Source: a virus
Lineage: Duplodnaviria > Heunggongvirae > Uroviricota > Caudoviricetes
Length of the DNA: 64,000 bases
Direction: 5' to 3' (one strand)
IMG/VR virus record: IMGVR_UViG_3300009131_000001
Location: 17,814-81,813 of that record
Part shown: positions 4,863 to 55,106 of the stretch, one piece after another
Numbering within the stretch: the stretch's first letter is position 1
How the letters are laid out: every line of letters begins with the position of its first letter
Translations under genes and position numbers: made by a program
The notes under the pieces: generated by a model
What the model was told of the DNA's origin: nothing
What the model saw: only the letters and a program-made list of their open reading frames with translations
Databases searched by the model: none

Positions 4863-5471
4863 TTATTCAGTTTTATTTGTTATTAATTCAGACATAGGAA
4901 GAGTTTCTATCCATTTACAGAAATCTTGCCACTCTTGAAGCTTATGATGCTTGCGCTGTGAATAAATAGTTTTAAGTTGAAGATAGTTAGTTGATATACC
5001 CATCCATTTTAAATAACCAGATGGTAAATTCTCAATTATTCTTTTAAAACATATTTCTTTCTCGTCTAAAAATAACGGCGAATTATATGCCCTTATAGAA
5101 CCATTAATCAATTCTATAATACCATCATGTACATTGTTAGTAAAATCATCTTTAGTTAATTCTCTGCTAGTAATTTTATGCATCTTACTCTGAGAACTAA
5201 CAATGTCTACCCAGTGGTATCTTTGTAATTGTGGGCTAAAATATTCAGGATATTGTAGGTCAAATTGAACTATAATTCCTTTAAGGAAATTATTATGTCC
5301 TGAACCACTTGGTGTATTTGCTAGCTTTTTAGCTCTATTAGTATCCCCATTACATATAGATGATATGGCTTCCGACTTATCTAAATCTTTAGGTTCCCCA
5401 ACTTGCATTGGATAACCACTACGAACTAAGCTTTCTGCCAATCCGTAAATTTTTATATTTTTAATTTTCAT
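4863..5471 (-). CDS. Hypothetical protein with a faint ThyX-like resemblance (not supported)
   Basis: 202-aa ORF. GHNNF...IIVQF...QRYHW loosely recalls the ThyX N-terminal region but lacks the RHR motif. Confidence 0.45.
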   Translation of the reverse strand: MKIKNIKIYGLAESLVRSGYPMQVGEPKDLDKSEAISSICNGDTNRAKKLANTPSGSGHNNFLKGIIVQFDLQYPEYFSPQLQRYHWVDIVSSQSKMHKITSRELTKDDFTNNVHDGIIELINGSIRAYNSPLFLDEKEICFKRIIENLPSGYLKWMGISTNYLQLKTIYSQRKHHKLQEWQDFCKWIETLPMSELITNKTE

Positions 5472-6420
5472 GCAATAGTTTAAAAATTACGCCTTTATAT
5501 TTGTTATTGCCTTTATAGGACTTACCAGACTTTAATAGTTTTTCTATTGTTTTTCTATTAATTCCTGTATATTCTGATGTTTTTATTATATTATCAAACT
5601 GTAATATTTGATTATCATATTCAAAGGTAATTGGAACCCATTGTGAAGATTTTGTATTTTTTCTATTAAATTTCTCAATTCTGTATTTATCAAAAGGATC
5701 ATCTGGATATCTCCAAACAAAACCGTATGCAGATAGTACTTTTCCTTTAGAACATCTTACTATAGGTTGATATTTAAATCCAAGGTTCCTCTCTATTTCC
5801 ACAGAACTTGTAAAAGTTTTTATAAAATTTCCATCTATGTCATATTGATTTATTGGTTTAGATATCCTTAAAATATTTTTTTCTGACATTTTCTTTCCAG
5901 TATTGGCAATACTTATCTTAAGTTTTTGCTCTTCAGATAATTTCTTACCTAATCTAGATAAAGACATATTCTTTCGCCATTCAGGTGTTCTTGGTATATT
6001 ACGTAATGATTTTGAAAGTTTATCTATAGTCTCTTTTCTTCTTTTTACTCCTAAACATGATTTTTCTACTATTTTACAAATATTCATATCTGGATTAATG
6101 ATGTCTATATAATGCTGCTCAAATTTCATACATTCTTCTGCATCACAATAATGAATAACATATGCTTTAATATTATAGCATTTATTATAAATATTTTGCA
6201 TGAACACATTATAATGCTTATTTCTATGTAATAACCATTTATGTTGATTTATTCTTTCAGATAATCCTAATTTATTTGCTGTGCTACCAATATACAAATG
6301 ACTACCAATTTTTATTAAATATATACCAGTACTTCTATTTATTTTTTTAACTATTACTTTCCCATTACATTCCTCAATAATTTTCTCTAGTTCTTCTATA
6401 TTTTTTATATTGTTATTCAT
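5461..6420 (-). CDS. GIY-YIG homing endonuclease with NUMOD3/IENR1-like DNA-binding repeats
   Basis: GIYLIKIGSHLYIGST is a GIY-YIG core. NUMOD3-like EEQKLKISIANTGKK and a C-terminal IENR1-like YTGINRKTIEKLLKSGKSYKG are present. Confidence 0.75.
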   Translation of the reverse strand: MNNNIKNIEELEKIIEECNGKVIVKKINRSTGIYLIKIGSHLYIGSTANKLGLSERINQHKWLLHRNKHYNVFMQNIYNKCYNIKAYVIHYCDAEECMKFEQHYIDIINPDMNICKIVEKSCLGVKRRKETIDKLSKSLRNIPRTPEWRKNMSLSRLGKKLSEEQKLKISIANTGKKMSEKNILRISKPINQYDIDGNFIKTFTSSVEIERNLGFKYQPIVRCSKGKVLSAYGFVWRYPDDPFDKYRIEKFNRKNTKSSQWVPITFEYDNQILQFDNIIKTSEYTGINRKTIEKLLKSGKSYKGNNKYKGVIFKLLHEN

Positions 6421-10761: not shown

Positions 10762-11778
10762 CTATCCAATTATATTTTTACCTAATTCATAGTATCTAAA
10801 CTTATGTTCCCAACTGTCATTCTGAATATGCCATTTTAATTCTATAATTAATTCAGGAATAGACGGAATCTTATTATATTTAGGATATAAAACATCCATA
10901 AAATAAGTAGTTTTTTCTGCTTCACCATCTAAAATATCCCTATCTAATACCCAATCAACTAAATCATCACATAACTCATAAACCTCTGGTTTATTTGCTC
11001 CTGTTGTATCAATAGTTACATTGATATATTTATACTCATAATCAGCATATTCAGAGTAATTCTTCTTAAACAATTCCCCATAAAAAGGAGTTTGTAGATA
11101 GTAATGATACTTCCAGAAATTAGATATAAAATTACCCGAATAAGTCTTTACATCTACAATATAGACAATCTTTTCATTCTCATCTACATCTACAATATCA
11201 GGCTTACCTTTACACTCTATTCCCCATAATTCAGCAAATAGTTCTAATTGCTTAAATTGTTTGGTAAAATTTCTAGAATCTAAGTAATATTCAGTAGTTG
11301 GTTCATAGTGTGCAGATGTAATTAGGTTTTCAGCAAATTCTAATGTGTCAGCAGATATTACAGATTTACCTTCCGCTTGAGCAGATTGCATTGTTTCAAC
11401 ATAATCAGAACATCCTTCATAGAATTTCTTAATTACAGTTTCATCTTTTAACCTAGAATCATAATTTACATTATCTCTAGCTTGTAGTATGACTATATTA
11501 CTTGGACTTGTTAGTAATGGATCTGAAGCCAATCTAACATATTCATCTGCTAATGCTAGCATCCCTCCACTAGGTTTATTCCTAACTACTGCAAACTTAT
11601 TATAAACTGGTTCATCACTAGTTAGTAGATGGTCTACAATATTTCCTAATTCAAATCCACTTGAGGATTTATCTTCACCATCTATCATAGCCTTAGCCTC
11701 TTTAGGGGAGGCTATTAGGCTAGATAGTAGCGAATAATTTACTGCTTTACTTTCTTTGTAATTTAATATTTCTCCCAT
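10762..11778 (-). CDS. PD-(D/E)xK (RecB/Cas4-like) nuclease, probable recombination exonuclease
   Basis: GKPDIVDVDENEKIVYIVDVKTYSG gives a D...D/ExK core. A QTPFYGELF Q..Y motif follows. Confidence 0.55.
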   Translation of the reverse strand: MGEILNYKESKAVNYSLLSSLIASPKEAKAMIDGEDKSSSGFELGNIVDHLLTSDEPVYNKFAVVRNKPSGGMLALADEYVRLASDPLLTSPSNIVILQARDNVNYDSRLKDETVIKKFYEGCSDYVETMQSAQAEGKSVISADTLEFAENLITSAHYEPTTEYYLDSRNFTKQFKQLELFAELWGIECKGKPDIVDVDENEKIVYIVDVKTYSGNFISNFWKYHYYLQTPFYGELFKKNYSEYADYEYKYINVTIDTTGANKPEVYELCDDLVDWVLDRDILDGEAEKTTYFMDVLYPKYNKIPSIPELIIELKWHIQNDSWEHKFRYYELGKNIIG

Positions 11779-12332
11779 GGTTGTATTGCTGTATGTAATC
11801 CTAATGTACCCCCCTTATAAAATGTTAGAGGGTTTGATATATAATTATGCATTGCCAATCTTTTTAGAAATTTAGTGCCTATCAAAGAACTTATAGAATT
11901 TCTAATAGTTTTCTCAGTACAATTTAAAAATTTAGCACATTCTTGAATTTGTAAGGAACTAAAAATTATAATTTTAGATTTAGGTTCTTGAAATTCTACC
12001 ATATACATAAATACTTGTAAATCTCTAAGGCTGCTGAATTCAGTCAACCATTCCAATCCTTCAGTTGAATGTACCATAATAAAAGTTTCTTTTTTATCTT
12101 TTTCCCAACTTCTATTATGAATTTCCGAATGACATTTATAACATAGAGTTATTAACAAACTATTATCATATTCCCAAGCATTTCTGCCCTTTATATATTT
12201 AATATGATGTATATTTAATTTATCAATACTTCCACACCTTGTACATTTATAGGAATCTCTTTCTAAAATAGATTGCCTTTTACTTTTCCATTCTTTAGTC
12301 AATAATTGTTTTCTATATTCTTCTTTATTCAT
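11763..12332 (-). CDS. HNH endonuclease
   Basis: CTRCGSIDKLNIHHIKYI...NSLLITLCYKCHSEIH is a classic HNH C..C...HH...N...C..CH motif. Confidence 0.7.
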   Translation of the reverse strand: MNKEEYRKQLLTKEWKSKRQSILERDSYKCTRCGSIDKLNIHHIKYIKGRNAWEYDNSLLITLCYKCHSEIHNRSWEKDKKETFIMVHSTEGLEWLTEFSSLRDLQVFMYMVEFQEPKSKIIIFSSLQIQECAKFLNCTEKTIRNSISSLIGTKFLKRLAMHNYISNPLTFYKGGTLGLHTAIQPWEKY

Positions 12333-44004: not shown

Positions 44005-45000
44005 ATGGGTAGAGTAAGAAAAATAGGAGTCTATAAAATTACTTGTAATATTACTGGAATGTCTTATATAGGACAGAGTAATGATGTTTATAGAAGATTG
44101 AGATTTTATAAATCTCTGAGATGTAGGCAACAACCAAGAATTTACAGATCTCTATCTAAGTATGGCATAGATAATCACATATTTACAATCATTTGGGAAT
44201 CTACCTATAGTAGTAAACACATAATATTACAAAAGGACACTCTTAATATTTTGGAAAAATTTTACATATTTAAATATAATACCCTATCTCCCAATGGGTT
44301 AAATTTGTATTCTGGAGGAGATTCTTATACAGCATCTGAAGAAACTAGACTTAAATTAAGTAAATCTAAAAGTGGTATAAATCATCCAATGTATGGAAAG
44401 ATTGGAAAATTAAATCCAGCATCAAAGGAGGTTGTGCAATTAAGTAAAGATGGAGAGTTTATAAAAGATTGGGAATCTGCAACTGTTGCAGAAAAGACTT
44501 TAAATATAGCTAGAGATTTAGTATCAGCATGTTGTAGAGAAGATAGATATAGTACTAATGGGTATATATGGATGTGGAAAGCAGATTTTGATACTTACGG
44601 GCCAAAAATATACAAATTACCAAAAAGAAAAGATAGTCTATCAAAGAAGACTTATCAATATGATTTACAAGGTAAATATTTAAGAGAGTGGAATTCTACT
44701 ATGGATATAGAAAGAGAACTTAATATTGCAAATACATCTATAAGTAATGTATGCACAAATCAAAAAGGACAGGCTGGAGGATTTCAATGGAGATACTTTA
44801 TAAATGAAAATGGTATAAATGAATATATTACTAAGGGATTTCATGTAGTAGTTACAGATATAGATACAGGACTAATTCAAGAGTTTGAAAGTCTAGCTAA
44901 AATAAGTAAGACCTTTAAAATAAAGTGGTATATAATTAAAGAATGTTGCGAAGGTATTAGGAAATATTATAAAAATTATAAATTTAGTTATAAATATTAA
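44005..45000 (+). CDS. GIY-YIG homing endonuclease with NUMOD-type DNA-binding repeats
   Basis: GVYKITCNITGMSYIGQS is a GIY-YIG core. NUMOD3-like TRLKLSKSKSGINHPMYGK. Repeated IENR1/NUMOD1-like segments (KEVVQLSKDGEFIKDWESATVAEKTLNIA; LREWNSTMDIERELNIANTSISNVC). Confidence 0.7.
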   Translation: MGRVRKIGVYKITCNITGMSYIGQSNDVYRRLRFYKSLRCRQQPRIYRSLSKYGIDNHIFTIIWESTYSSKHIILQKDTLNILEKFYIFKYNTLSPNGLNLYSGGDSYTASEETRLKLSKSKSGINHPMYGKIGKLNPASKEVVQLSKDGEFIKDWESATVAEKTLNIARDLVSACCREDRYSTNGYIWMWKADFDTYGPKIYKLPKRKDSLSKKTYQYDLQGKYLREWNSTMDIERELNIANTSISNVCTNQKGQAGGFQWRYFINENGINEYITKGFHVVVTDIDTGLIQEFESLAKISKTFKIKWYIIKECCEGIRKYYKNYKFSYKY

Positions 45001-45901: not shown

Positions 45902-46095
45902 TGTTTATTATAAGATTTCATTTTAGAAATGTAGACGAATCTATAGATTTTATAGAACAATCCAAATCTATGTTAGAAGGATTTGACTATAAGATTAATA
46001 TAGAGGATAACGGTAAAATAGTTAAAGTTGAAATATTAAAACTAAAAGATAAAGTAATATGGGAAGTAAAAGGAAAGTGTTTTTATATGAACTAG
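45901..46095 (+). CDS. hypothetical protein
   Basis: 64-aa ORF with ATGA-type overlap. Confidence 0.35.
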   Translation: MFIIRFHFRNVDESIDFIEQSKSMLEGFDYKINIEDNGKIVKVEILKLKDKVIWEVKGKCFYMN

Positions 46096-47312
46096 CAACT
46101 GGTAAGACTATAGAATTTAATAGTCAGACTTCTGCTGGAGAGTTTTTACATGTTAGTGAAGCAACAATACGTAAGTATAATAATACTCTTAAAGAGATTG
46201 ATGGGTATAGAATATATAGTGGAGATAAAGTAGCACTTGCTGGAGAATCCTTATTAAATAGTATTAATGACCATAAAGAAACAAATGAAAACATTAATAC
46301 TAATGAGTTGGATTCAAGGATAAGTGAATTAGGTTATTCTAAATCTGATATACAGTCTGTTAAAACTTGGCAAACCCAGAAAGGTGAGACTAGATTTAGT
46401 ATTGTAACTAAACCAGATCAAGTTAATTCTGAAGAATTCCTGGAGAATCTTAAGAATAAGTTATCTGAATCCGTCAAACCATTTGAGATTCAACTTACAC
46501 CTGCTAAAGTTAGTGGGGTAGATTTAATAGTTTATACTTCAGATAAGCATGTTGGGGCTTGTAGTAAAGATTCTCAATATAATAATGAGTATAATGAGAT
46601 GGAATTTACTCGTAGAATGCAACAAATCTATCAAGAAATTGCATATGTAAAATTTGAATTTGGGCATATTAATAGTCTAATATTTATTGATTTAGGGGAT
46701 AATCTTGATGGGTATAATGCTCAAACTACTAGAGGTAATCATCCACTACCCCAGAATATGACTGATGAGGAATCATTTGATACTTATGTAAATGTACATA
46801 AGATATTCTTTGATAGTTTGGTAGAAAATAGTATGGCTAGTGAGTATAAGGCATACTTTGTAAATGATAGTAATCACTCTGGAAGTTTCGGATATACTGC
46901 AAATAGGGCATTGGAGATTTATCTTAATGTTAAGTTTCCATTCATAGAAACTATTCAGATGAATAAGTTTATGGAACATTTTATTCTAGGAGATGATTGC
47001 TATATTCTATGTCATGGTAAAGACAAGATTGATAGAAAGAATGGATTACCATTACATCTTAACGATGGTACTTATAAGTTAATATCTGACTACATTGACT
47101 ATAATAAGTTACATAATTATAACGTACATTTTGTAAAGGGGGATTTACACCAGAGTGCTTTTGAAAAGAATAGTAAGTTTACTTATAGGAATATACCTAG
47201 TGTATATGGTGCTAGTAAGTGGATTATGAATAACTTTGGATTGAATAAGCCTGGATTCTCAATGGATGTTTATCATATGGGGAATATTTATAGAAGAGAT
47301 ATTGAACTTTAA
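46059..47312 (+). CDS. calcineurin-like metallophosphoesterase with an N-terminal NUMOD1/IENR1-like DNA-binding module
   Basis: MPP motifs in order: DKHVG (D.H), GDNLDG (GDxxD), NDSNHSG (GNH-like), CHGKD (GH), GDLHQS. The N-terminal YELATGKTIEFNSQTSAGEFLHVSEATIRKY resembles homing-endonuclease DNA-binding repeats. Confidence 0.65.
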   Translation: MGSKRKVFLYELATGKTIEFNSQTSAGEFLHVSEATIRKYNNTLKEIDGYRIYSGDKVALAGESLLNSINDHKETNENINTNELDSRISELGYSKSDIQSVKTWQTQKGETRFSIVTKPDQVNSEEFLENLKNKLSESVKPFEIQLTPAKVSGVDLIVYTSDKHVGACSKDSQYNNEYNEMEFTRRMQQIYQEIAYVKFEFGHINSLIFIDLGDNLDGYNAQTTRGNHPLPQNMTDEESFDTYVNVHKIFFDSLVENSMASEYKAYFVNDSNHSGSFGYTANRALEIYLNVKFPFIETIQMNKFMEHFILGDDCYILCHGKDKIDRKNGLPLHLNDGTYKLISDYIDYNKLHNYNVHFVKGDLHQSAFEKNSKFTYRNIPSVYGASKWIMNNFGLNKPGFSMDVYHMGNIYRRDIEL

Positions 47313-47322
47313 ATTATAAATT

Positions 47323-47730
47323 ATGGAAAAATATTATTCGCCAAGTTCAGAAGAATTAAGAGTAGGTTTTGAATGTGAGATTAAATTACATACTGGAGAA
47401 TGGAAACCTATAAGATTAACTGAAGAATCCATGAAAACTACCTACTCTTCAGTAGATATTATAAGAGTTAAATATTTAGATAGGGATGATATAGAGAGTT
47501 TTGGGTTTGAATTTTGTGGTGCTGGATTTGATAATTATATGAATCACTTTAGTGATGGGTTCTTTAATATATGTTTTAGAGATATTGACGGGGATAATAA
47601 GGGAATTTCAATTAATCATGAAAGGAATAGTGGGGAGTATGTAAAAGATTTTTCTGGGTTTATAAAAAATAAATCTGAGCTGGAAATACTCCTAAAACAA
47701 CTAGGAATTAGAAACAATGAAGAATATTAA
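47323..47730 (+). CDS. hypothetical protein (paralog of 48136..48555)
   Basis: Shared YY(S/T)PS.EE.R.GFE.E...; VKYLD..DIESFGFE(F/Y); IKNKSEL...LK..G(I/V). Confidence 0.5.
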   Translation: MEKYYSPSSEELRVGFECEIKLHTGEWKPIRLTEESMKTTYSSVDIIRVKYLDRDDIESFGFEFCGAGFDNYMNHFSDGFFNICFRDIDGDNKGISINHERNSGEYVKDFSGFIKNKSELEILLKQLGIRNNEEY

Positions 47731-47890: not shown

Positions 47891-48146
47891 ACCTAATTAC
47901 TTCTTAGATGGAGTAATGAGAGAAGTTGCTACTAAATATGATATTCCATTTGTTAAAGTACAAGAATGTATGGCTGCTCAATATGAGTTTGTTAGAAGAA
48001 GCGTTGAGAGTTATAATTCTAAAACTCAAACTGGAGCAAGGGTAATATATTTACCTAACTTTGGAAAGTTTATTATATCGGATAAGGTAATTAGTAATTT
48101 ACAGGAGAAGTATAAAGATTATAAGGAGAAGGAAGATGGAGAATAA
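47877..48146 (+). CDS. hypothetical protein
   Basis: 89-aa ORF. Confidence 0.4.
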   Translation: MTLIKPNYFLDGVMREVATKYDIPFVKVQECMAAQYEFVRRSVESYNSKTQTGARVIYLPNFGKFIISDKVISNLQEKYKDYKEKEDGE

Positions 48147-48555
48147 ATATTACACACCTAGTATTGAGGAATTTAGAATTGGGTTTGAGTATGAAGTGTA
48201 TATTCCAGAAAAAGAATTGTGGAGTAGTGAAACTTTTTATTTAAACCAATCTCATATTGATATTATAAAATATGTAGATATACAAACAGAAAATACTTTA
48301 AGACGAGTAAGAGTAAAATATCTAGATAGTTCTGATATAGAAAGTTTTGGGTTTGAATATAGTCATACTCCAAGAAAAAATGTGCTATTATTTAAAAGTA
48401 ATGAATATAATTTGTGGTTTGAAATGGATTTTAATTTTGTTAGAATAAGAAATACTAAAGAGATACTTCCGGGGAATATTCAATTGTTTTTTGGGAAGAT
48501 TAAAAATAAATCAGAACTACAACAAGTTCTTAAAATGATAGGAGTTATAGAATAA
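48136..48555 (+). CDS. hypothetical protein (paralog of 47323..47730)
   Basis: See 47323..47730. Confidence 0.5.
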   Translation: MENKYYTPSIEEFRIGFEYEVYIPEKELWSSETFYLNQSHIDIIKYVDIQTENTLRRVRVKYLDSSDIESFGFEYSHTPRKNVLLFKSNEYNLWFEMDFNFVRIRNTKEILPGNIQLFFGKIKNKSELQQVLKMIGVIE

Positions 48556-49121
48556 TGAAACTATTTGAATTAAATAGACTTACCTATGAAATAGAGATTG
48601 CTCCTGAAGCATTACTATTAGAACCTTTTAAAAGGCTTATTGATAGGGATAAGTCTAAGACTAAGGATATGGTTAAGAAGGAATTGGCTTTGATATACCA
48701 TTATTGCGATATTAGAAGTGATTATTCTGGTATGGAAAATAATACTAAACTTGCTCAAATTATTGAGAATCTTAAGTTTAGTAAAGGATATACTCCTGAT
48801 AAGATGGTAAAAGAAGCAATGGAATTCTATATGAGTTTTAAGACTCCTATTCAAGAATTATATGAAGGGGCTGTAATTGCTGCTCAAGCAGTTAATGAGT
48901 ATCTTAGGAAGTCCAAAGAATTGTTGGAAGAAAGAACTAAGGATGGTAAGATAGTGACTGACATTGCTAAAATTACAGCGTCTATTGAGAAGTTACCTAA
49001 GATTATGATGAACCTTAAGACTGCTGAGAAGGAATATATTAAGGAAACTAAGGAAACTGAGGGAAGGATGAAGGGGTCTAAGGCAATGAATATGTTTGAG
49101 GATGGATTAAAGACTGAATAG
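48555..49121 (+). CDS. hypothetical protein; candidate small terminase subunit by position only
   Basis: 188 aa, helical/charged, immediately upstream of the large terminase with a 1-nt gap. Confidence 0.3.
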   Translation: MKLFELNRLTYEIEIAPEALLLEPFKRLIDRDKSKTKDMVKKELALIYHYCDIRSDYSGMENNTKLAQIIENLKFSKGYTPDKMVKEAMEFYMSFKTPIQELYEGAVIAAQAVNEYLRKSKELLEERTKDGKIVTDIAKITASIEKLPKIMMNLKTAEKEYIKETKETEGRMKGSKAMNMFEDGLKTE

Positions 49122-49122
49122 T

Positions 49123-52100
49123 ATGGATTATACCAAACTAAATAAGTATCAAACATTAATAACTCCAGAACTAGAAAAGTCTTTACCTAAAGAAGTTTAT
49201 GCAGAACTTATCAATACTATTGATACTATTCCTTTTGTTAATTGGTTAGTACAACCTGAAGAAGTTAGGGGATTTGCTAAAGATAGGGTTAGGCATAAAG
49301 ATTTAGATGATTCTGATGAAAGAAAGCAATATGATGATAATAGGATAGTTGTAGATGTAACTAAACCTCATATACTTGAGGATATGGATTTCTTTAGGGA
49401 AAGGGCTATATTCTTTGATAAGTATGGATGTTATACAGATTTAACTCCTAATCCTAATCCTAATAGTGATTACGCTTTATTTTGGAAGGAAGAAATTAGA
49501 AGGTGGAAGGATGGATTAATTAAACCTAGTGATGGAGAATGGATTCCAGGAGGATTGTACTTTTATTGGAATTATTGTCCAATATGGCAAACCCAAACTG
49601 ACAGTATAACTATAAAAGGTAGAACTAAATCTAGGGCTAAACGTGTTAAAAAATTCCCTAAACCTTGGTTAGGAGATTATTTATTTTATCATTATATAGA
49701 ACAGGCTCAAGAATATGCACTACATGGTAAACTTCTAAAATGTCGTGGCGTTGGATTTAGCTTTAAAATGGGGAGTTTATCTCCTAGAAATATGTATGTG
49801 TATCAAGGTGAAGGAAATCCTAATTTCCATTTGGCTAGTGATAAAGGATTTTTACAGGGTGATAAGGGAGTATATAGTAAAGTAATCACTGTATTAGACT
49901 GGATTGCAGATACTACCCCACTCCCAAAATTAAGACTTGTGAATAGTGCTAGAAGTATGGAAATTAAACTGGGCTATCAAGATGAATATGGGGTAAATAG
50001 AGGCCCTCAGTCTAGTGTATTTGGTATATCTCTTAAGGATAATCCGGATAAGGCTCGGGGTATTCGCGGGCCTTTAGTCCATTATGAGGAAGATGGGCTA
50101 TTTCCTAATCTAGAAGATGCATGGAATATTAATCTTAAATCTGTAGAGGATGGTGACGAATCATTTGGTTTTCAATTAGCTGGCGGGTGTTTAACTGAAA
50201 ATAATTATGTATGGACTCATAATGGAAGTCTAAAAAGAATTAAAGATCTTAAAGTATCTGATGGTATAATAGGATTTAATAATGATAATCAAACTTTTAC
50301 TAAAGAACCTATTACTTATTTACAACCTACTATTAATAAACCTTGTTTGAGAATAGAAACTAATACTGGAAGATTTATTGAATGCAGTACAGATCATCCT
50401 ATACTGTACAGTCATTCTTTACTCTTTAAAAGAGAAGAACTACCTTCAGTAAATGGTAAAAGAAAAAGAAAGACATTTAAAGTAGTATCATTTAATCCTG
50501 CAAATAATTTAGTAATAGGAGACCAAGTAGCAACATTAGATCAGTTTCCCATATTTTCAGACATAGATATGTGGAATCCCAGACTAGTTGGATGGTTAGT
50601 AGGTGATGGTAGTTATGGTATAGATAAGACTCCAGTATTATCTAATTGTGAAGATGAGATAAATAGTTGGTTACATAATAATTTTAAAGATGATGTAACT
50701 ACAGAAAAATCATATATAACTAAGGATGGTAAAACTTATGAAGAAAATAGAATAAAAGGTATCACTAAAGAATTACGTAAGTTAGGGATATATGGACAAA
50801 CCAAATCAAATAAAAGACTTCCAATAGACATACATAATTACTCATTGAACACAGTCACGGAGTTTATAGGGGGATTTTATGATACTGATGGATATATTTC
50901 AAATACAGGTAGAGTTTCTTTATCCTCAGGACATAAAGAAATCTTGTTAGAAATGCAATTGTTATTACAAAAATTAGGTATTCATGGAAATATTATGTAT
51001 GTTAAACCAAATTTTAAAAACCCAAAAAGTAAAAATGGACATTATAATCTAGAAGTAGCAGATAGAGATAGTTTATTAAATTTTCAAAAGCACATAAAAC
51101 TATCTCCTAAAGTAAAAGCAGAAAGACTTGCTAATATTCATAATTTATATAAAAGTAAATCTCAACGTGCAAAACATCTTTCTGGAGTAAGATTTGAAAG
51201 AGTAGTTAAGATTGAGAATATAGGTATTCAACCTGTTTATAATTTAACTGCTGGAGAAACACATACTTATGTAGGAAATGGAATTATTACTCACAATACA
51301 GGAGGTACAGAAGGGGCTAGTTTTGAGGGTTCTGAGAAACTATTTTATCATCCAGATGCCTATAATATATACGGAATAAGTAACGTATATGATAGAAATG
51401 TAAATTCTGATTTAAAGTGTGGTTTCTTCTGGGGAGCATACTTAAATAGAAATAAGTGCTATGATTTAGATACAGGAGAACCTGATGTAATAAAGGCATT
51501 GTGTCAAATTTTACAAAATAGGTATAAAGTAAAAAATAATTCTACAGACCCCAAAGCAATTACTCAAAAAAAGGCCGAAGAACCTATTACTCCACAAGAG
51601 GCTATCATGCGTAGGGAGGGGAATATATTTCCTGCTGAAGATATTAAGAACTATCTTGCTGAAATAATGCCTAACTTCCAAAACTTTGTTAGTAGTCACT
51701 ATGTAGGCAAACTAGTTATTAATACTTCTGGAGATGTAGAGTGGAAACTAAATGAAGGTAACTTATACCCTATTAGGGATTTTCCATTTTTAGATGGTAA
51801 TAAAGAAGGTGCTGTAGAAATATATGAAATGCCTAAAAGATTTGGTAATGGGGAAATTCCTGTTGGTAGGTATATTTGTGGTATAGACCCCTATGACGAT
51901 GAAACTGGTACTTCATTAGGCAGTATATTTGTATTTGATAGGTGGAGTAGATGTATAGTTGCAGAGTATACTGGTAGACCTAGATTTGCAGATGAATTCT
52001 ATGAGATTTGCTATAGATTAGCCAAGTATTACAATGCAATGATAATGTATGAGAATAATAAGAAAGGATTATTTGTATATTTTAGAAATAAGAATATACT

Positions 52101-52512
52101 TCATATGCTGGCAGATGTTCCTAAAATACTTACTGATAAGCAGTCTTTAAAACCTGATACATTATATGGGAATAAATCCAAAGGGTTCAATGCCACTGCT
52201 GAAGTAAATACATTCTTAAGAACTGCTCAAGTTAAATGGATGTGTGAACCTTTAATGGATGATGAAGGAAACCCTAATGGATTGACTAGACTACATAAGA
52301 TTAGAAGTGTTGCATATCTTAAGGAGTGTGCTAGTTGGAATAGTGATGGTAACTTTGATAGGGTTAGTGCTATGGGAGCAGTAATGCTGTATGATTTAGA
52401 ATTAGGTAATGTAGAGATTAAAAGAACTACTGAACAAATTAAAACTAGAGCACATGATAAATATTTTGATAAGTTCTATGGAAACAAATCTAAAATGTTA
52501 AATACATGGTAA
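49123..52512 (+). CDS. terminase large subunit interrupted by an intein
   Basis: The C-terminal RNase H-like nuclease domain (YICGIDPYDDETGTSLGSIFVFDR...IVAEYTGR...EFYEICYRLAKYYNAMIMYENNKKG) is typical of TerL. A 370-aa intein is inserted after ...FQLAGG. Confidence 0.65.
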   Translation: MDYTKLNKYQTLITPELEKSLPKEVYAELINTIDTIPFVNWLVQPEEVRGFAKDRVRHKDLDDSDERKQYDDNRIVVDVTKPHILEDMDFFRERAIFFDKYGCYTDLTPNPNPNSDYALFWKEEIRRWKDGLIKPSDGEWIPGGLYFYWNYCPIWQTQTDSITIKGRTKSRAKRVKKFPKPWLGDYLFYHYIEQAQEYALHGKLLKCRGVGFSFKMGSLSPRNMYVYQGEGNPNFHLASDKGFLQGDKGVYSKVITVLDWIADTTPLPKLRLVNSARSMEIKLGYQDEYGVNRGPQSSVFGISLKDNPDKARGIRGPLVHYEEDGLFPNLEDAWNINLKSVEDGDESFGFQLAGGCLTENNYVWTHNGSLKRIKDLKVSDGIIGFNNDNQTFTKEPITYLQPTINKPCLRIETNTGRFIECSTDHPILYSHSLLFKREELPSVNGKRKRKTFKVVSFNPANNLVIGDQVATLDQFPIFSDIDMWNPRLVGWLVGDGSYGIDKTPVLSNCEDEINSWLHNNFKDDVTTEKSYITKDGKTYEENRIKGITKELRKLGIYGQTKSNKRLPIDIHNYSLNTVTEFIGGFYDTDGYISNTGRVSLSSGHKEILLEMQLLLQKLGIHGNIMYVKPNFKNPKSKNGHYNLEVADRDSLLNFQKHIKLSPKVKAERLANIHNLYKSKSQRAKHLSGVRFERVVKIENIGIQPVYNLTAGETHTYVGNGIITHNTGGTEGASFEGSEKLFYHPDAYNIYGISNVYDRNVNSDLKCGFFWGAYLNRNKCYDLDTGEPDVIKALCQILQNRYKVKNNSTDPKAITQKKAEEPITPQEAIMRREGNIFPAEDIKNYLAEIMPNFQNFVSSHYVGKLVINTSGDVEWKLNEGNLYPIRDFPFLDGNKEGAVEIYEMPKRFGNGEIPVGRYICGIDPYDDETGTSLGSIFVFDRWSRCIVAEYTGRPRFADEFYEICYRLAKYYNAMIMYENNKKGLFVYFRNKNILHMLADVPKILTDKQSLKPDTLYGNKSKGFNATAEVNTFLRTAQVKWMCEPLMDDEGNPNGLTRLHKIRSVAYLKECASWNSDGNFDRVSAMGAVMLYDLELGNVEIKRTTEQIKTRAHDKYFDKFYGNKSKMLNTW
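50188..51297 (+). mobile_element. Intein with a LAGLIDADG homing endonuclease domain inside the terminase large subunit
   Basis: It starts with Cys (CLTENNY) at 50188 and ends ...GIITHN at 51297, followed by Thr (+1). Two LAGLIDADG motifs are present: LVGWLVGDGSYGID and FIGGFYDTDGYIS. The length of 1110 nt is in frame. Confidence 0.75.
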
Positions 52513-52568
52513 TTAAATTAGTGTTGATGATATGAATATGTATAAATTTGGAAACTAAATATTAAAGT

Positions 52569-55106
52569 ATGATAAAGGAATCATCTGCAATGGGAGTTCA
52601 AAGTGTTAACTTTTTCCCAGCACAAATGCTTACTGATAAAGAAAGAACTGATGATTTCTATCAGCAGTGCATTGATGCTGGATTAAGTATAGTTAACTGG
52701 AACCTCAACTTATATAGTTCAATTGGTGTAAGAAACACCAGAAAGAATAAGATTATCAACTACAATCTTTTCAATGATATTGTTGATAGAGAGGAAATGA
52801 ATAGGGTTATTAATCCTTGGGGATTTGATGATGTTGCCAAACTTCCTAGATATAAGAATTACTCTTTACTAAATAGTAGTCTGATGTTGCTATTCGGTGA
52901 GGAAAGAAGAAGGGCATTTAATCCTATTGCTACATCTATTAATAGCGATGCGGTTAATGAGAGATTACGAACTATTAATAATGCTTTTACTCAAACTGTA
53001 ACACAATCACTTATAAATCCAAATGAATCTCCTGAAGAAACTGAAAGGAAGATGCAGGAGTTTGGTAAGTGGGCTAATTTTGAGTATAAGGATAGAAGGG
53101 CTAGAATGGCTCAACAGGTTATTAACTACTTATACAGGACTGACTATGCTGCGGAGACTTTTAGTAGAGGATTTGAGGATTTACTAATTGCTGGGGAGGA
53201 GATATATTTTGGAGATGTTATAGGTAATAAACCTGTACTTAGAAAGGGTAATCCTTTAAATACGTATAGTTTGAGAGCAGGTACATCCTATAAGATAGAA
53301 GATTCAGATATTATTGTTGAGGATGGGTATTTACCTTTGGGAGAAGTTCTTGATAGGTACTATGATGATTTATCACCTAAAGAAATAGATGCACTACAAC
53401 AAGGATTTAGAATATCTACAGGTAAAGGGCTTATTCAGGGGCAAGAGGCTAACCCAGTATTTGACCCAAGTCTAATATTTGGAGTAGAATTAAATGGTAA
53501 TATATTTAATCCCAATAACTCTGATGTATCATATTTTGCTGGAGGATTTGATGTTCAAGGTAATGTTAGGTGTACTAGAGTTCTTTGGAAGGGTATGAGA
53601 AAGGTAGGCTCACTAGAAACTACTGACCCTGAAACAGGTGAAACCATTAAGAAGTATGTAGATGAATCCTATAAGCCTAACAAAATGTTAGGTGAAAAGA
53701 TAGAGTGGATGTGGCTATCTGAATGGTTTGAAGGTACTAAGATTGGTAATAATGTGTATACCAGAATGAGACCTTGTCCAGTACAGTTTAGAAGTATGGA
53801 TAATCCATCTATCTGTAAGCCTCCTGTGGTAGGTATAGTTGTTAATGTTAATGCTAATAAGGGTAGAAGTTTGGTTGATATGACTAGGGAATATCAGTAC
53901 CTATATAATGCTCTTATGGCAAGAATGGAAATGACTATGGTTAAGGATAGGGGTAAAATGGCTAGACTAGATTTATCCTTAATTCCTGATGGTTGGGAAA
54001 TGGATAAGTGGATGTACTATGCTGAGGTATTAGGTTGGCAAGTAGTAGACCCATTTAATGAAGGGCAGAAAGGTGCAGCCACTGGTAAGTTAGCAGGAGC
54101 AATGAATCAGAATTCTTCTTCTATAGATTTGGAACAGGGGCAATACCTACAAAGAACTCTACTAATGGCAGATTTCATTGCTAGAAGAGTTGAGGATATA
54201 ACGGGTATTAACCCACAAAGAAAGGGGGCTGTAGATAATAGGGAAACTGTTGGAGGTGTTGAGAGGGCTGTAACTCAGAGTTCTATGAGTACTGAAAAGT
54301 GGTTTGTACTACACGATAATGTTAGAATTAGAGCATTAAAGATGTGGCTAGAACTTGCCAAGTTTGCTTGGAGAAATGAGCAGTTTAAGAGGCCATATAT
54401 TATGGATGACGGTAGTATGGGTATCTTGGATTTTGACTATGAAACATTTGTAGAATCTGAGTATGGTATAGATATTACTTCAAGTAGTGCTGATATGGAA
54501 ATGACTCAAGCACTTAAGCAACTTGCACAACCATTTCTACAAAATGGGGGTAATCTATCAATTGTTGCAGATTTGTATAGAACTACAGACCCACAAAGTC
54601 TACAGAGAAAGATTGAGGCTTATGAGCAACAGATTGCAGATAATACTAGACAGACTCAGGAGCAGCAGAATCAGATACAAATGCAGCAAATTGAACAGGC
54701 TAGTGCTCAAGCAGAAGCTACTGCACAAAGAGAGTATGATTTGGAAATGGCTAAACTTGACCTTGAAAGGTATAAGATTGATACTGAAGCATCTACTAAG
54801 ATTCAGGTAGCACAAATGGCTACTTATAATAAGAGGGAGGATATTGACTTAAATAAGAATGGTATTCCAGACCCAATGGAAATTGCTTCTAATGCTTTAA
54901 ATGCTAGAAAACAAGAGGCTGATGAATTTCAGAAGGAGTTAGATACTACATTAAAGTATAAGTTAGAACAGGAGAAAATGGATTTAGAGAGAGAGAAAAT
55001 GCAACATGATAAAGAGTTGCAGGATAAGAAGGATAAAGCAGCAATGGCTAGAGAGAAGTTGAAGGCTAGTACAGCACGTAAAAATAAAGTTTCAGGAGAG
55101 AAATAA
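52569..55106 (+). CDS. portal protein (probable)
   Basis: 845 aa, immediately after the terminase. The C-terminal Q-rich coiled segment is common in portals. No decisive motif. Confidence 0.5.
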   Translation: MIKESSAMGVQSVNFFPAQMLTDKERTDDFYQQCIDAGLSIVNWNLNLYSSIGVRNTRKNKIINYNLFNDIVDREEMNRVINPWGFDDVAKLPRYKNYSLLNSSLMLLFGEERRRAFNPIATSINSDAVNERLRTINNAFTQTVTQSLINPNESPEETERKMQEFGKWANFEYKDRRARMAQQVINYLYRTDYAAETFSRGFEDLLIAGEEIYFGDVIGNKPVLRKGNPLNTYSLRAGTSYKIEDSDIIVEDGYLPLGEVLDRYYDDLSPKEIDALQQGFRISTGKGLIQGQEANPVFDPSLIFGVELNGNIFNPNNSDVSYFAGGFDVQGNVRCTRVLWKGMRKVGSLETTDPETGETIKKYVDESYKPNKMLGEKIEWMWLSEWFEGTKIGNNVYTRMRPCPVQFRSMDNPSICKPPVVGIVVNVNANKGRSLVDMTREYQYLYNALMARMEMTMVKDRGKMARLDLSLIPDGWEMDKWMYYAEVLGWQVVDPFNEGQKGAATGKLAGAMNQNSSSIDLEQGQYLQRTLLMADFIARRVEDITGINPQRKGAVDNRETVGGVERAVTQSSMSTEKWFVLHDNVRIRALKMWLELAKFAWRNEQFKRPYIMDDGSMGILDFDYETFVESEYGIDITSSSADMEMTQALKQLAQPFLQNGGNLSIVADLYRTTDPQSLQRKIEAYEQQIADNTRQTQEQQNQIQMQQIEQASAQAEATAQREYDLEMAKLDLERYKIDTEASTKIQVAQMATYNKREDIDLNKNGIPDPMEIASNALNARKQEADEFQKELDTTLKYKLEQEKMDLEREKMQHDKELQDKKDKAAMAREKLKASTARKNKVSGEK

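Follow-up and report, generated by a model that had tools for sequence, protein, structure and literature searches.

The DNA analysed here, referred to as the window, is a 64,000-nucleotide stretch of a Caudoviricetes virus record (IMG/VR IMGVR_UViG_3300009131_000001). It contains a 1129-aa open reading frame (ORF), recovered exactly as in the original prediction, which had read it as a large terminase subunit (TerL) split by an intein (Table 1). The unspliced ORF matches the profile phrog_6681 ('terminase large subunit') with E=1.6e-100 in two separate stretches. Removal of the 1110-nt insert leaves a protein of 759 aa, for which the match to this Crassvirales TerL profile becomes full length, a single unbroken stretch covering 111-752 of 759 aa (E=1.5e-108). 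A structural model of the spliced form, compared by Foldseek, has T4 gp17 as its best match (2e-11), followed by the terminases of T7, P74-26, HK97 and G20c, and its nuclease domain matches those of the G20c, RB49 and P74-26 TerLs; the fold is that of an ASCE ATPase joined to an RNase H-like nuclease. The C-extein holds what is left of the ATPase domain, together with the nuclease domain. The gene is followed directly by the portal gene, and a Crass_capsid match (1e-101) lies further downstream. These observations support the assignment of the host gene as the large terminase of a crAss-like (Crassvirales) phage, and that part of the original prediction is upheld. No nucleotide-level match among GenBank phages was obtained when the TerL gene was searched by megablast. 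At the protein level, the spliced TerL is approximately 40-42% identical to annotated crAss TerLs, with the best GenBank sequences (Steigviridae) at approximately 42%.

Table 1. Features of the TerL locus and other putative mobile endonuclease genes in the window (positions are those of the window)
Feature	Position	Strand	Evidence
TerL precursor ORF, 1129 aa + stop	49123..52512	+	ORF list; phrog_6681
N-extein, aa 1-355: N-terminal region and first part of ATPase domain, ending ...FGFQLAGG	49123..50187	+	Collinear with intein-less L005 allele
Putative Walker A-like P-loop LLKCRGVGFSFK, aa 204-215; deviant, Lys206 upstream, without the GK[ST] lysine	49732..49767	+	Putative motif assignment
Walker B PLVHYEEDG, aa 317-325	50071..50097	+	hhalign to T4 gp17; E322, E323 invariant
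Last five N-extein codons QLAGG, end of β-strand before putative C-motif	50173..50187	+	Model strand 350-355; G355 invariant
Intein, 370 aa, precursor aa 356-725: split HINT + inserted LAGLIDADG endonuclease domain	50188..51297	+	Pfam, AlphaFold, Foldseek
Block A CLTENNYVWTHNG, Cys1 as first nucleophile	50188..50226	+	Cys1 in 142/142 relatives
Block B GRFIECSTDHPILY, Ser67 + His70	50368..50409	+	'CSxDHP' kept in same-site inteins
First LAGLIDADG motif LVGWLVGDGSY, acidic Asp140, intein 133-143	50584..50616	+	Sequence motif
Second LAGLIDADG motif FIGGFYDTDGY, acidic Asp234, intein 226-236	50863..50895	+	Pfam LAGLIDADG_3
Blocks F + G, VYNLTAGETHTYVG and NGIITHN, C-terminal His369-Asn370	51235..51297	+	HN end in 120/142 relatives
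C-extein, precursor aa 726-1129, Thr first (+1 nucleophile, putative C-motif TGG)	51298..52509	+	T356 invariant
First nuclease acidic motif ICGIDPYDD (putative), extein 548-556	51874..51900	+	D552, D555 invariant
Portal gene, directly downstream of TerL	52569..55106	+	phrog_6547, E=1.8e-123
GIY-YIG/NUMOD-type ORF	5461..6420	-	
GIY-YIG/NUMOD-type ORF	44005..45000	+	
HNH ORF	11763..12332	-	
ORF with NUMOD1 N-terminus, 417 aa	46059..47312		

Anatomy of the intein

The predicted boundaries of the 370-aa insert are exact: CLTENNY begins at precursor residue 356, and the THN/TGGTEG junction places the last intein residue at 725. Its ends are also as described, with Cys1, a final His-Asn and Thr at +1, and both LAGLIDADG blocks are present, an agreement that far exceeds what chance would give. 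Blocks A, B, F and G were all located, and Pfam Intein_splicing reached 38.5 bits, above its cut-off of 35.8. In the same search of the insert alone, LAGLIDADG_3 (PF14528) matched intein residues 223-303 with E=2e-13; this LAGLIDADG_3/Hom_end match covers the second half of the endonuclease only, and the first LAGLIDADG motif lies outside it.

The AlphaFold model of the intein (pLDDT 91.5) contains a full-length endonuclease domain of high confidence, flanked by two HINT halves that fold together. When PDB sequences were searched with the intein by phmmer, the matches were no more than marginal (7qss, 1e-4; 1dq3, 3e-3), and the fold comparison was decisive instead. The 13 best Foldseek matches to PDB entries are without exception intein homing endonucleases, led by 7qsu (7.8e-19) and followed by PI-SceI and PI-PfuI, whereas lower matches include mini-inteins (Mtu RecA, Ssp/Npu DnaB), Hedgehog Hint domains and free LAGLIDADG enzymes; the central domain matches I-DmoI and I-Tsp061I. 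PI-SceI, PI-PfuI and TliVMA/PhoVMA likewise combine a split HINT domain and a LAGLIDADG endonuclease of two motifs. These solved inteins align with ours at Foldseek E values of 8e-19 to 1e-15, a query-normalised TM-score of approximately 0.65 and 12-18% identity. They differ in their hosts, which are V-ATPase and ribonucleotide reductase rather than TerL, and in chain length (361-454 aa versus 370 aa here, where the +1 residue is Thr).

The insert has the attributes of a class-1 intein, namely Cys1, a (T/S)xxH block B, a terminal HN followed by Thr, a HINT fold and precise presence or absence among alleles. A two-motif LAGLIDADG endonuclease is indicated by its two acidic motifs (Asp140 and Asp234), the profile match and the fold. 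Three features are less typical. In block F, Asn352 stands at a position that is Asp in many class-1 inteins; block B reads S67-T-D-H70, with Ser at the usual Thr position, a Ser that is conserved among the aligned same-site inteins; and the N-terminal block CLTENN differs from CVCAGT, which is commoner within the family. Because all three variants recur among relatives, they are probably tolerated. A class-3 or class-2 mechanism was rejected given the presence of Cys1 and a block F without Cys at the class-3 position. The sequence blocks and the model together indicate that the insert, which lies in frame in a crAss-like TerL, is very probably a class-1 intein harbouring a two-motif LAGLIDADG endonuclease.

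CrAss-like phages contain many group I introns with endonuclease ORFs (Yutin 2021, PMC7886860), and free-standing GIY-YIG and HNH genes also occur in the window. An intron, a free-standing homing-endonuclease gene that happens to be in frame, or an assembly chimera would nevertheless be an extremely improbable account of the insert. The ORF is unbroken through both junctions, the boundaries fall exactly at C1 and at HN/T, the HINT halves surround the endonuclease domain and fold together with one another in the model, and an identical 1129-aa precursor was called on four Logan contigs, one of them a 78-kb contig from SRR5476985.

The original prediction had listed two HNH genes, two GIY-YIG genes and a NUMOD1-tagged phosphoesterase elsewhere in the genome. 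Both GIY-YIG ORFs, one HNH ORF and the NUMOD1 N-terminus were recovered; a second HNH ORF was not found in the window, nor was a phosphoesterase domain detected on the 417-aa NUMOD1 ORF. The description of this genome as unusually rich in selfish endonucleases, which was partly checked, needs tempering, as such richness is normal in some crAss-like lineages (PMC7886860).

Insertion site and the intein-less allele

A search of all PDB sequences with the crAss TerL profile found none even at E<=10, and the motifs were therefore mapped by hhalign to T4 gp17 and on the predicted structure. In Steigviridae TerLs, the aligned counterpart of the putative P-loop LLKCRGVGFSFK is their RGxxKS P-loop; residues L205, K206, R208, G209, G211 and S213 are invariant among 34 TerLs, and in the TerL model a β-strand (201-205) is followed by a helix (213-217). 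For Walker B, LVHYEE pairs with MIYIDE (251-256, numbering verified) of T4 gp17, a weak match (E=0.08, probability 0.7%) that is still weak with a cropped ATPase domain (E=0.012, probability 3.6%), and the model places a β-strand at 318-322. The hhalign result was trusted over this segment only. Longer forced alignments (mact 0.05 or 0) opened an implausible 10-residue gap and were not used in placing the C-motif.

The intein junction follows a strand (350-355) that comes after the Walker B strand and a helix, in a region where the TerL model has moderate confidence (pLDDT about 63-76). G355 and T356, which the intein separates, are invariant among 34 TerLs at 58-84% identity, and likewise across an alignment with two Steigviridae TerLs (approximately 40%) among its members. 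The spacing from Walker B to the junction is 33 residues, versus 29-31 in gp17. This combination of a weak hhalign anchor, a moderate-confidence model and residue invariance, rather than a residue-level structural superposition, suggests that the invariant Gly-Thr at the intein is the ATPase coupling C-motif (motif III). The guess that the junction marks a conserved ATPase site was right, but the intein had been placed between an N-terminal region and the nuclease domain, which is incorrect: it lies inside the ATPase domain, approximately 33 residues past Walker B, and is separated by approximately 190 extein residues from the first nuclease motif (GIDPYDD, extein 550-556). The suggested comparison with intein-less TerLs mapped the insertion after the Walker B strand and before the invariant Thr.

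A natural intein-less TerL (P0001) was found on contig L005. It is 759 aa long and 99% identical to the excised protein, which makes the predicted length of ~759 aa exact. The DNA of L005 is 94-95% identical to positions 48493-50183 and 51297-54644 of the window, the gap being the intein, and the L005 allele lacks exactly these 1110 nt. Without the intein both genes are 2280 nt, and their codon differences comprise 116 synonymous and 10 non-synonymous changes. The empty site, ...GCTGGAGGT/ACTGGAGGTACA... (also TTTCAATTAGCTGGAGGT/ACTGGAGGTACAGAAGGG), is a candidate substrate for the endonuclease; beside the junction it differs from the flanks in the window (GGC GGG / ACA) by three synonymous changes.

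If the insert were a dead intein or another non-splicing in-frame insertion, TerL would be non-functional or would work as a 1129-aa protein. We regard this as very improbable, although the Asn that replaces the common Asp in block F would fit it. TerL is essential, single-copy and adjoins the portal gene, and the excess of synonymous over non-synonymous extein differences from the empty allele argues against a non-functional gene. The insert splits the ATPase core right after a β-strand; its terminal catalytic residues are all intact, its +1 Thr is invariant in TerL, and the same termini are kept by 142 relatives. Related TerL inteins, moreover, splice efficiently (PMC5050341).

That this class-1 intein splices while its endonuclease is inactive or has no target, so that it persists as a vertically inherited resident whose homing cycle has reached the decay phase, is an alternative that we consider unlikely yet worth weighing. 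In the comparison with L005, no co-conversion tract was seen beside the intein, the mismatch rate near the junction being at or below background; recent homing of this copy is consequently not directly evidenced. Nor does the intein show a composition anomaly: its GC content of 27.8% is ordinary (30th percentile of the window), which argues against a very recent foreign arrival. Its nearest relatives found are just 67% (P0150) and 68% (fragment P0121) identical, which also fits a long-resident element. Against decay, Asp140 and Asp234 are both retained, the endonuclease domain is full length and confidently modelled, and occupied and empty alleles occur in phages that are 5-6% diverged in DNA, as would be expected of ongoing gain and loss. 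In addition, another TerL intein in the same phage population, at the P-loop of P0002, is surrounded by a clear co-conversion tract, so that homing is active there.

Related inteins and known systems

An exhaustive search with the intein returned 214 cluster representatives at E<=1e-30. This search was needed, as a word-indexed protein search with the intein alone gave only 29 matches, the closest relatives not among them. In diverse phage TerLs, no fewer than 142 related inteins lie at this site or at another located three codons downstream, most commonly in a hydrophobic stretch ending G/intein/TGG. Among the 142 full-length relatives, Cys1 is present in all, the HN end in 120 and Thr +1 in 132. 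The same-site inteins of P0012, P0013, P0017 and P0089 show homology along their entire length, at 31-35% identity. Five or six intein sites are used in the TerLs of these relatives: Walker A, the G/T junction, a second GG/T three codons downstream, the nuclease active-site motifs G/xDPYDD and NxDR/xSAM, and GNK/xKG. A single TerL carries up to four inteins. The TerL of this crAss-like clade may, we suggest tentatively and with some doubt, be an exceptional multi-site intein hotspot.

The P-loop intein of P0002, a close relative, combines a block B Trp, a block F Cys and a Thr-His-Asn end, which we take to be a class-3 signature and which would imply a different splicing mechanism. Bacteroides phage DAC15 and crAssphage cr111_1 have TerLs of the same family with in-frame LAGLIDADG inteins of approximately 340-360 aa; in contrast to the intein described here, these are inserted at Walker A rather than at the C-motif, and are without Cys or Ser at position 1. 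RefSeq names the intein-bearing DAC15 TerL 'DarB-like antirestriction'.

TerL inteins have already been reported in crAss-like phages. According to Yutin 2021 (PMC7886860), the Delta-group TerL 'typically contains an intein', and one TerL is shown there with two. The inteins of Delta (Suoliviridae) and Zeta TerLs share the phage order and the host gene with ours; the TerL of the present phage, at only approximately 42% identity to the best GenBank crAss sequences (Steigviridae), belongs to a different lineage. Mycobacteriophage inteins at site TerL6-f, such as that of Chandler gp6, which spliced in a reporter assay (Kelley 2016, PMC5050341), occupy the coupling C-motif of a phage TerL ATPase, where ours may also lie, and share the rationale of a selfish element within a conserved ATPase motif. 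Their hosts are siphoviruses of Actinobacteria rather than Crassvirales, and the TerL family is also different. Furthermore, every mycobacteriophage TerL intein lay in the ATPase domain, whereas the relatives described above also have nuclease-domain sites.

Proposed splicing and homing, and their significance

Translation would yield a 1129-aa precursor whose ATPase fold is interrupted immediately ahead of the invariant Thr of the putative C-motif. An N-S acyl shift at Cys1, aided by Ser67 and His70 of block B, would be followed by transfer of the thioester to the hydroxyl of the +1 Thr. Cyclisation of Asn370, assisted by His369, would free the intein, and an O-N shift would join ...FQLAGG-TGGTEG... 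to give the active 759-aa TerL, with the predicted junction peptide ...FQLAGGTGGTEGASF... (SFGFQLAGGTGGTEGASFEGSEK). Once released, the 370-aa intein, whose putative catalytic acids are Asp140 and Asp234, would cut the insertion site in intein-less TerL alleles of co-infecting relatives, and recombinational repair would copy it into the cut allele.

The TerL intein is correctly identified but ordinary, as an intein with a homing endonuclease is a well-documented selfish element, and it adds one more case to the known rule that inteins favour the most conserved catalytic motifs of essential phage ATPases. If the intein sites of the relatives prove uncatalogued, intein site choice and switching would have a natural study system in this clade, to which the intein of the window would belong as just one ordinary member. 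Crassvirales phylogeny relies chiefly on TerL as its marker, and overlooked inteins make the protein appear too long, disrupt alignments and lead to wrong names; with the exact boundaries given here, the mature 759-aa TerL can be used instead of the precursor. The intein of the window and the empty L005 allele together provide a defined enzyme and substrate pair for homing in an uncultured phage lineage.

An intein in the large terminase gene

Translation of the 1129-aa large terminase (TerL) ORF places the CLTENNY start of the insert at precursor residue 356 and its GIITHN end at residue 725, followed by TGGTEGAS; these figures reproduce the originally predicted 370-aa insert and 759-aa remainder, the sum of the two flanks. 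When searched alone against Pfam, the insert matched LAGLIDADG_3 (E = 2e-13) and Intein_splicing (38.5 bits; cut-off of 35.8), with a sub-threshold Hint match at its N terminus. Intein blocks A, B, F and G are present, as are the two LAGLIDADG motifs that had been claimed. In a Foldseek search of the PDB using an AlphaFold2 model built from 28 homologues (mean pLDDT of 91.5, pTM of 0.87), the top 13 matches were all intein homing endonucleases, among them TliVMA (7qsu, 7.8e-19), PI-SceI, PI-PfuI, PhoVMA and PI-TkoII, followed by free LAGLIDADG enzymes (I-Tsp061I and I-DmoI), Hedgehog Hint domains and mini-inteins. The insert is a two-motif LAGLIDADG domain splitting a HINT domain.

The strongest evidence that TerL is the host protein, and for the exact boundaries, is a natural empty allele on contig L005, the 759-aa product of which (P0001) is 99% identical to the conceptually spliced protein. 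L005 aligns with window positions 48493-50183 (95.2% DNA identity) and 51297-54644 (93.9%), with no alignment between 50183 and 51297, and both genes, after excision from the window, are 2280 nt without gaps. Codon differences number 126, of which 116 are synonymous; the extein is thus subject to purifying selection. A precursor of identical sequence was also predicted on four Logan contigs and so is not an assembly artefact. The predicted large-terminase identity is borne out by the phrog_6681 profile (terminase large subunit), whose match is broken into two stretches in the intact ORF and becomes a single stretch (111-752 of 759 aa, E = 1.5e-108) after excision, and by the best tblastn matches, which are crAss-like TerLs (~40-42% identity). 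The portal gene lies directly downstream, and the window carries genes for a Crassvirus major capsid protein (PF23898, 1e-101) and a crAss tail ring protein as well.

Features of the TerL intein and of neighbouring genes in the window
Feature	Position	Strand	Sequence or match
TerL ORF	nt 49123..52512	+	1129 aa
Intein	nt 50188..51297	+	370 aa
Block A	intein residue 1		C1-LTENNYVW
Block B	intein residues 67, 70		ECS67TDH70P
First LAGLIDADG motif	intein residue 140		LVGWLVGD140GSY
Second LAGLIDADG motif	intein residue 234		FIGGFYDTD234GY
Block F			VYNLTAGETHTYVG
Block G	intein residues 369, 370		NGIITH369N370, then Thr
Clade P-loop	nt 49732-49767 (TerL aa 204-215)	+	LK-C-RG-V-G-F-S
Endonuclease-like ORF	nt 5461..6420	-	GIY...YIG sequence pattern, NUMOD1
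Endonuclease-like ORF	nt 11763..12332	-	HNH endonuclease
Endonuclease-like ORF	nt 44005..45000	+	NUMOD1, NUMOD3, near-threshold GIY-YIG; PHROG homing-endonuclease families
Endonuclease-like ORF	nt 46059..47312	+	417 aa; phrog_22398 (function not assigned); N-terminal NUMOD1 DNA-binding module
Paralogous small ORFs	nt 47323-47730, 48136-48555		MExYY(S/T)PSxEExR(V/I)GFExE... and ...IKNKSELxxxLKxxG(I/V)

Four further ORFs are free-standing, homing-endonuclease-like genes. Of the two HNH, two GIY-YIG and one NUMOD1-tagged phosphoesterase genes in the original prediction, both GIY-YIG/NUMOD1 ORFs, one HNH and the NUMOD1 module were recovered; a second HNH was not found in the window, and no phosphoesterase domain was detected in the 417-aa protein. 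Two small paralogous ORFs upstream of TerL share the two motifs listed in the table, the first at the N terminus and the second at the C terminus, and gave no family match. The domain scan, which covered 76 ORFs, also revealed a Tad2-like Thoeris anti-defence domain (PF11195, 1.4e-21), a pyruvoyl-dependent arginine decarboxylase (8e-24), a ferritin-like protein (1.4e-24), a radical SAM protein, MazG, a family A DNA polymerase and two RepL-like proteins.

Position of the insertion within TerL

The junction residues, G355 and T356 in extein numbering, do not vary across 34 TerLs (identity down to 58%), nor with two Steigviridae TerLs (~40% identity) added, in keeping with the conserved ATPase-domain site proposed at the outset. 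By hhalign, DNPDKARGIRGPLVHYEEDGLFPN paired weakly with a 24-residue segment of the T4 large terminase gp17 (probability of 0.7-3.6%, E of 0.08-0.012), which sets LVHYEE over the gp17 Walker B MIYIDE (251-256; gp17 numbering checked). The gp17 TTT, which we take to be the C-motif, occupies residues 285-287, 29-31 residues past E256; T356 is 33 residues past E323. When the empty allele was modelled with AlphaFold (pLDDT of 76.8), strand 201-205 came ahead of the P-loop-like KCRGVGFS, Walker B formed strand 318-322, and a helix led to strand 350-355 (FQLAGG), with T356 starting the next loop; the best PDB matches were T4 gp17 (2e-11), the T7, PhiV-1, P74-26 and HK97 TerLs and the G20c nuclease domain. 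On the basis of the invariance, the weak pairing, the spacing, the strand order and the PDB matches, the intein probably lies inside the ATPase domain, at the C-motif. This reading is supported by P0155, a TerL with canonical Walker A (GSRRLGKS) and Walker B (LVIDEVG), in which an intein of the same family also follows the next strand (PILTG/intein/TGGT). A location at the ATPase-nuclease boundary was rejected, with the first nuclease acidic motif, GIDPYDD, lying ~190 extein residues further on.

The P-loop of this clade has an invariant upstream Lys206 and no Lys at the GK[ST] position, presumably resembling the 'deviant Walker A' of lambda gpA; that of Steigviridae TerLs is RGxxKS.

The empty-allele sequence around L005 position 1942 is GCTGGAGGT/ACTGGAGGTACA, and the junction is a perfect 9-bp tandem repeat (CTGGAGGTA twice, coding GGT-GGT); related inteins occupy one or other of the two GG/T junctions, which are separated by three codons. 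The occupied allele (window 50170-50187 and 51298-51315) differs at three of the four wobble positions closest to the junction, each change being synonymous (GGC GGG/ACA), amounting to ~25% of bases versus a 5% background. These differences could be due to chance or related to endonuclease recognition or immunity.

Relatives and other TerL inteins

An exhaustive phmmer search with the intein, covering 1.84 billion cluster representatives, returned 2984 matches at E<=1e-3 and 214 at E<=1e-30; the best 150 are mostly proteins of ~1040-1480 aa. All 142 full-length relatives have Cys at position 1, 120 end in HN and 8 in Gln, and the +1 residue is Thr (132), Ser (9) or Cys (1). The most frequent context (75/142) is hydrophobic-G/intein/TGG, and a second group occurs three codons downstream, at GTGG/intein/TE(G/D). 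At this G/T junction, four close TerL homologues (P0012, P0013, P0017 and P0089) have inteins that align with the window intein over their full length at 31-35% identity (exteins, 61-65%). The closest relative (67% identity) shares the unusual CLTENN N terminus and resides in P0150, a crAss-like TerL also bearing a P-loop intein. The family extends beyond crAss-like phages, as P0155 shows. At the same site, some inteins, including those of P0012 and P0089, terminate in Lys-Gln, Arg-Gln or Ser-Gln, Gln being rare at the C terminus, and in others the penultimate residue is Gly, Ala, Ser or Phe. Full-length relatives (33-36% identity) were also observed in Gly/Ala/Gln-rich proteins unlike terminases, P0129 and P0130 (GGPWG/C...HN/SLIGG and NPFAM/C...HN/CAGAA), which may be a case of extein switching.

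The window intein belongs to a well-known kind, and its crAss-like lineage is only distantly related to those described. Mycobacteriophage TerLs have seven insertion sites, including the C-motif (Kelley et al. 2016, PMC5050341), and 293 TerL inteins were counted in actinobacteriophages (2025 preprint, 10.1101/2025.01.02.630785). A passage in Yutin et al. 2021 (PMC7886860) states that Delta-group crAss-like TerL 'typically contains an intein', and one TerL with two is depicted there; a 2023 review (PMC10136315) repeats the Delta-group statement. All mycobacteriophage TerL inteins were in the ATPase domain (PMC5050341), whereas relatives have nuclease-domain inteins as well (P0005, P0100, P0102, P0188 and P0193), at G/(C)DPYDD, NxDR/(C)SAM and, for a class-3-like intein, GNK/.../SKG. 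P0188 (1824 aa) contains three inteins and P0193 (1765 aa) four.

Walker A-site inteins were observed in P0002, P0058, P0104, P0150, crAssphage cr111_1 (L001:1489-4788) and Bacteroides phage DAC15 (L002:1486-4818; NC_055832, YP_010106262). The ~1100-aa TerLs of the two named phages, both cultured or reference crAss phages, contain in-frame LAGLIDADG inteins of ~340-360 aa (RGxxK/...HN/S); RefSeq labels the DAC15 protein 'DarB-like antirestriction', apparently an annotation error to which the intein gave rise. Inteins at this site have Glu or Ala, not Cys or Ser, as their first residue; block B contains Trp (NHLW), block F contains Cys (SSCFLVDND), and the last three residues are Thr-His-Asn. 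We take this set to be the class-3 'WCT' signature; one TerL family would then host inteins of two mechanistic classes.

Predicted splicing and homing

P0002 (1119 aa) has a mosaic extein: over residues 1-120 and ~440-759 it shares 95-100% identity with the P0001/window type, and over ~120-440, a segment with the P-loop intein at its centre, 85-100% (mostly at least 97%) with the P0003 type. From these sequences, the mosaic looks like a co-conversion tract of ~1 kb left by homing within this phage population.

The anatomy of the window insert fits standard class-1 splicing and homing, whereby the precursor would splice and the released LAGLIDADG enzyme would then home into empty alleles such as L005. 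Among mycobacteriophage TerL inteins, five representatives spliced efficiently, including one at the C-motif (TerL6-f), and a further two cleaved the cognate alleles that lack an intein (PMC5050341). With its ATPase core interrupted, the precursor would not be an active motor, and splicing would therefore be required for packaging, as Kelley et al. argued for the mycobacteriophage inteins (PMC5050341).
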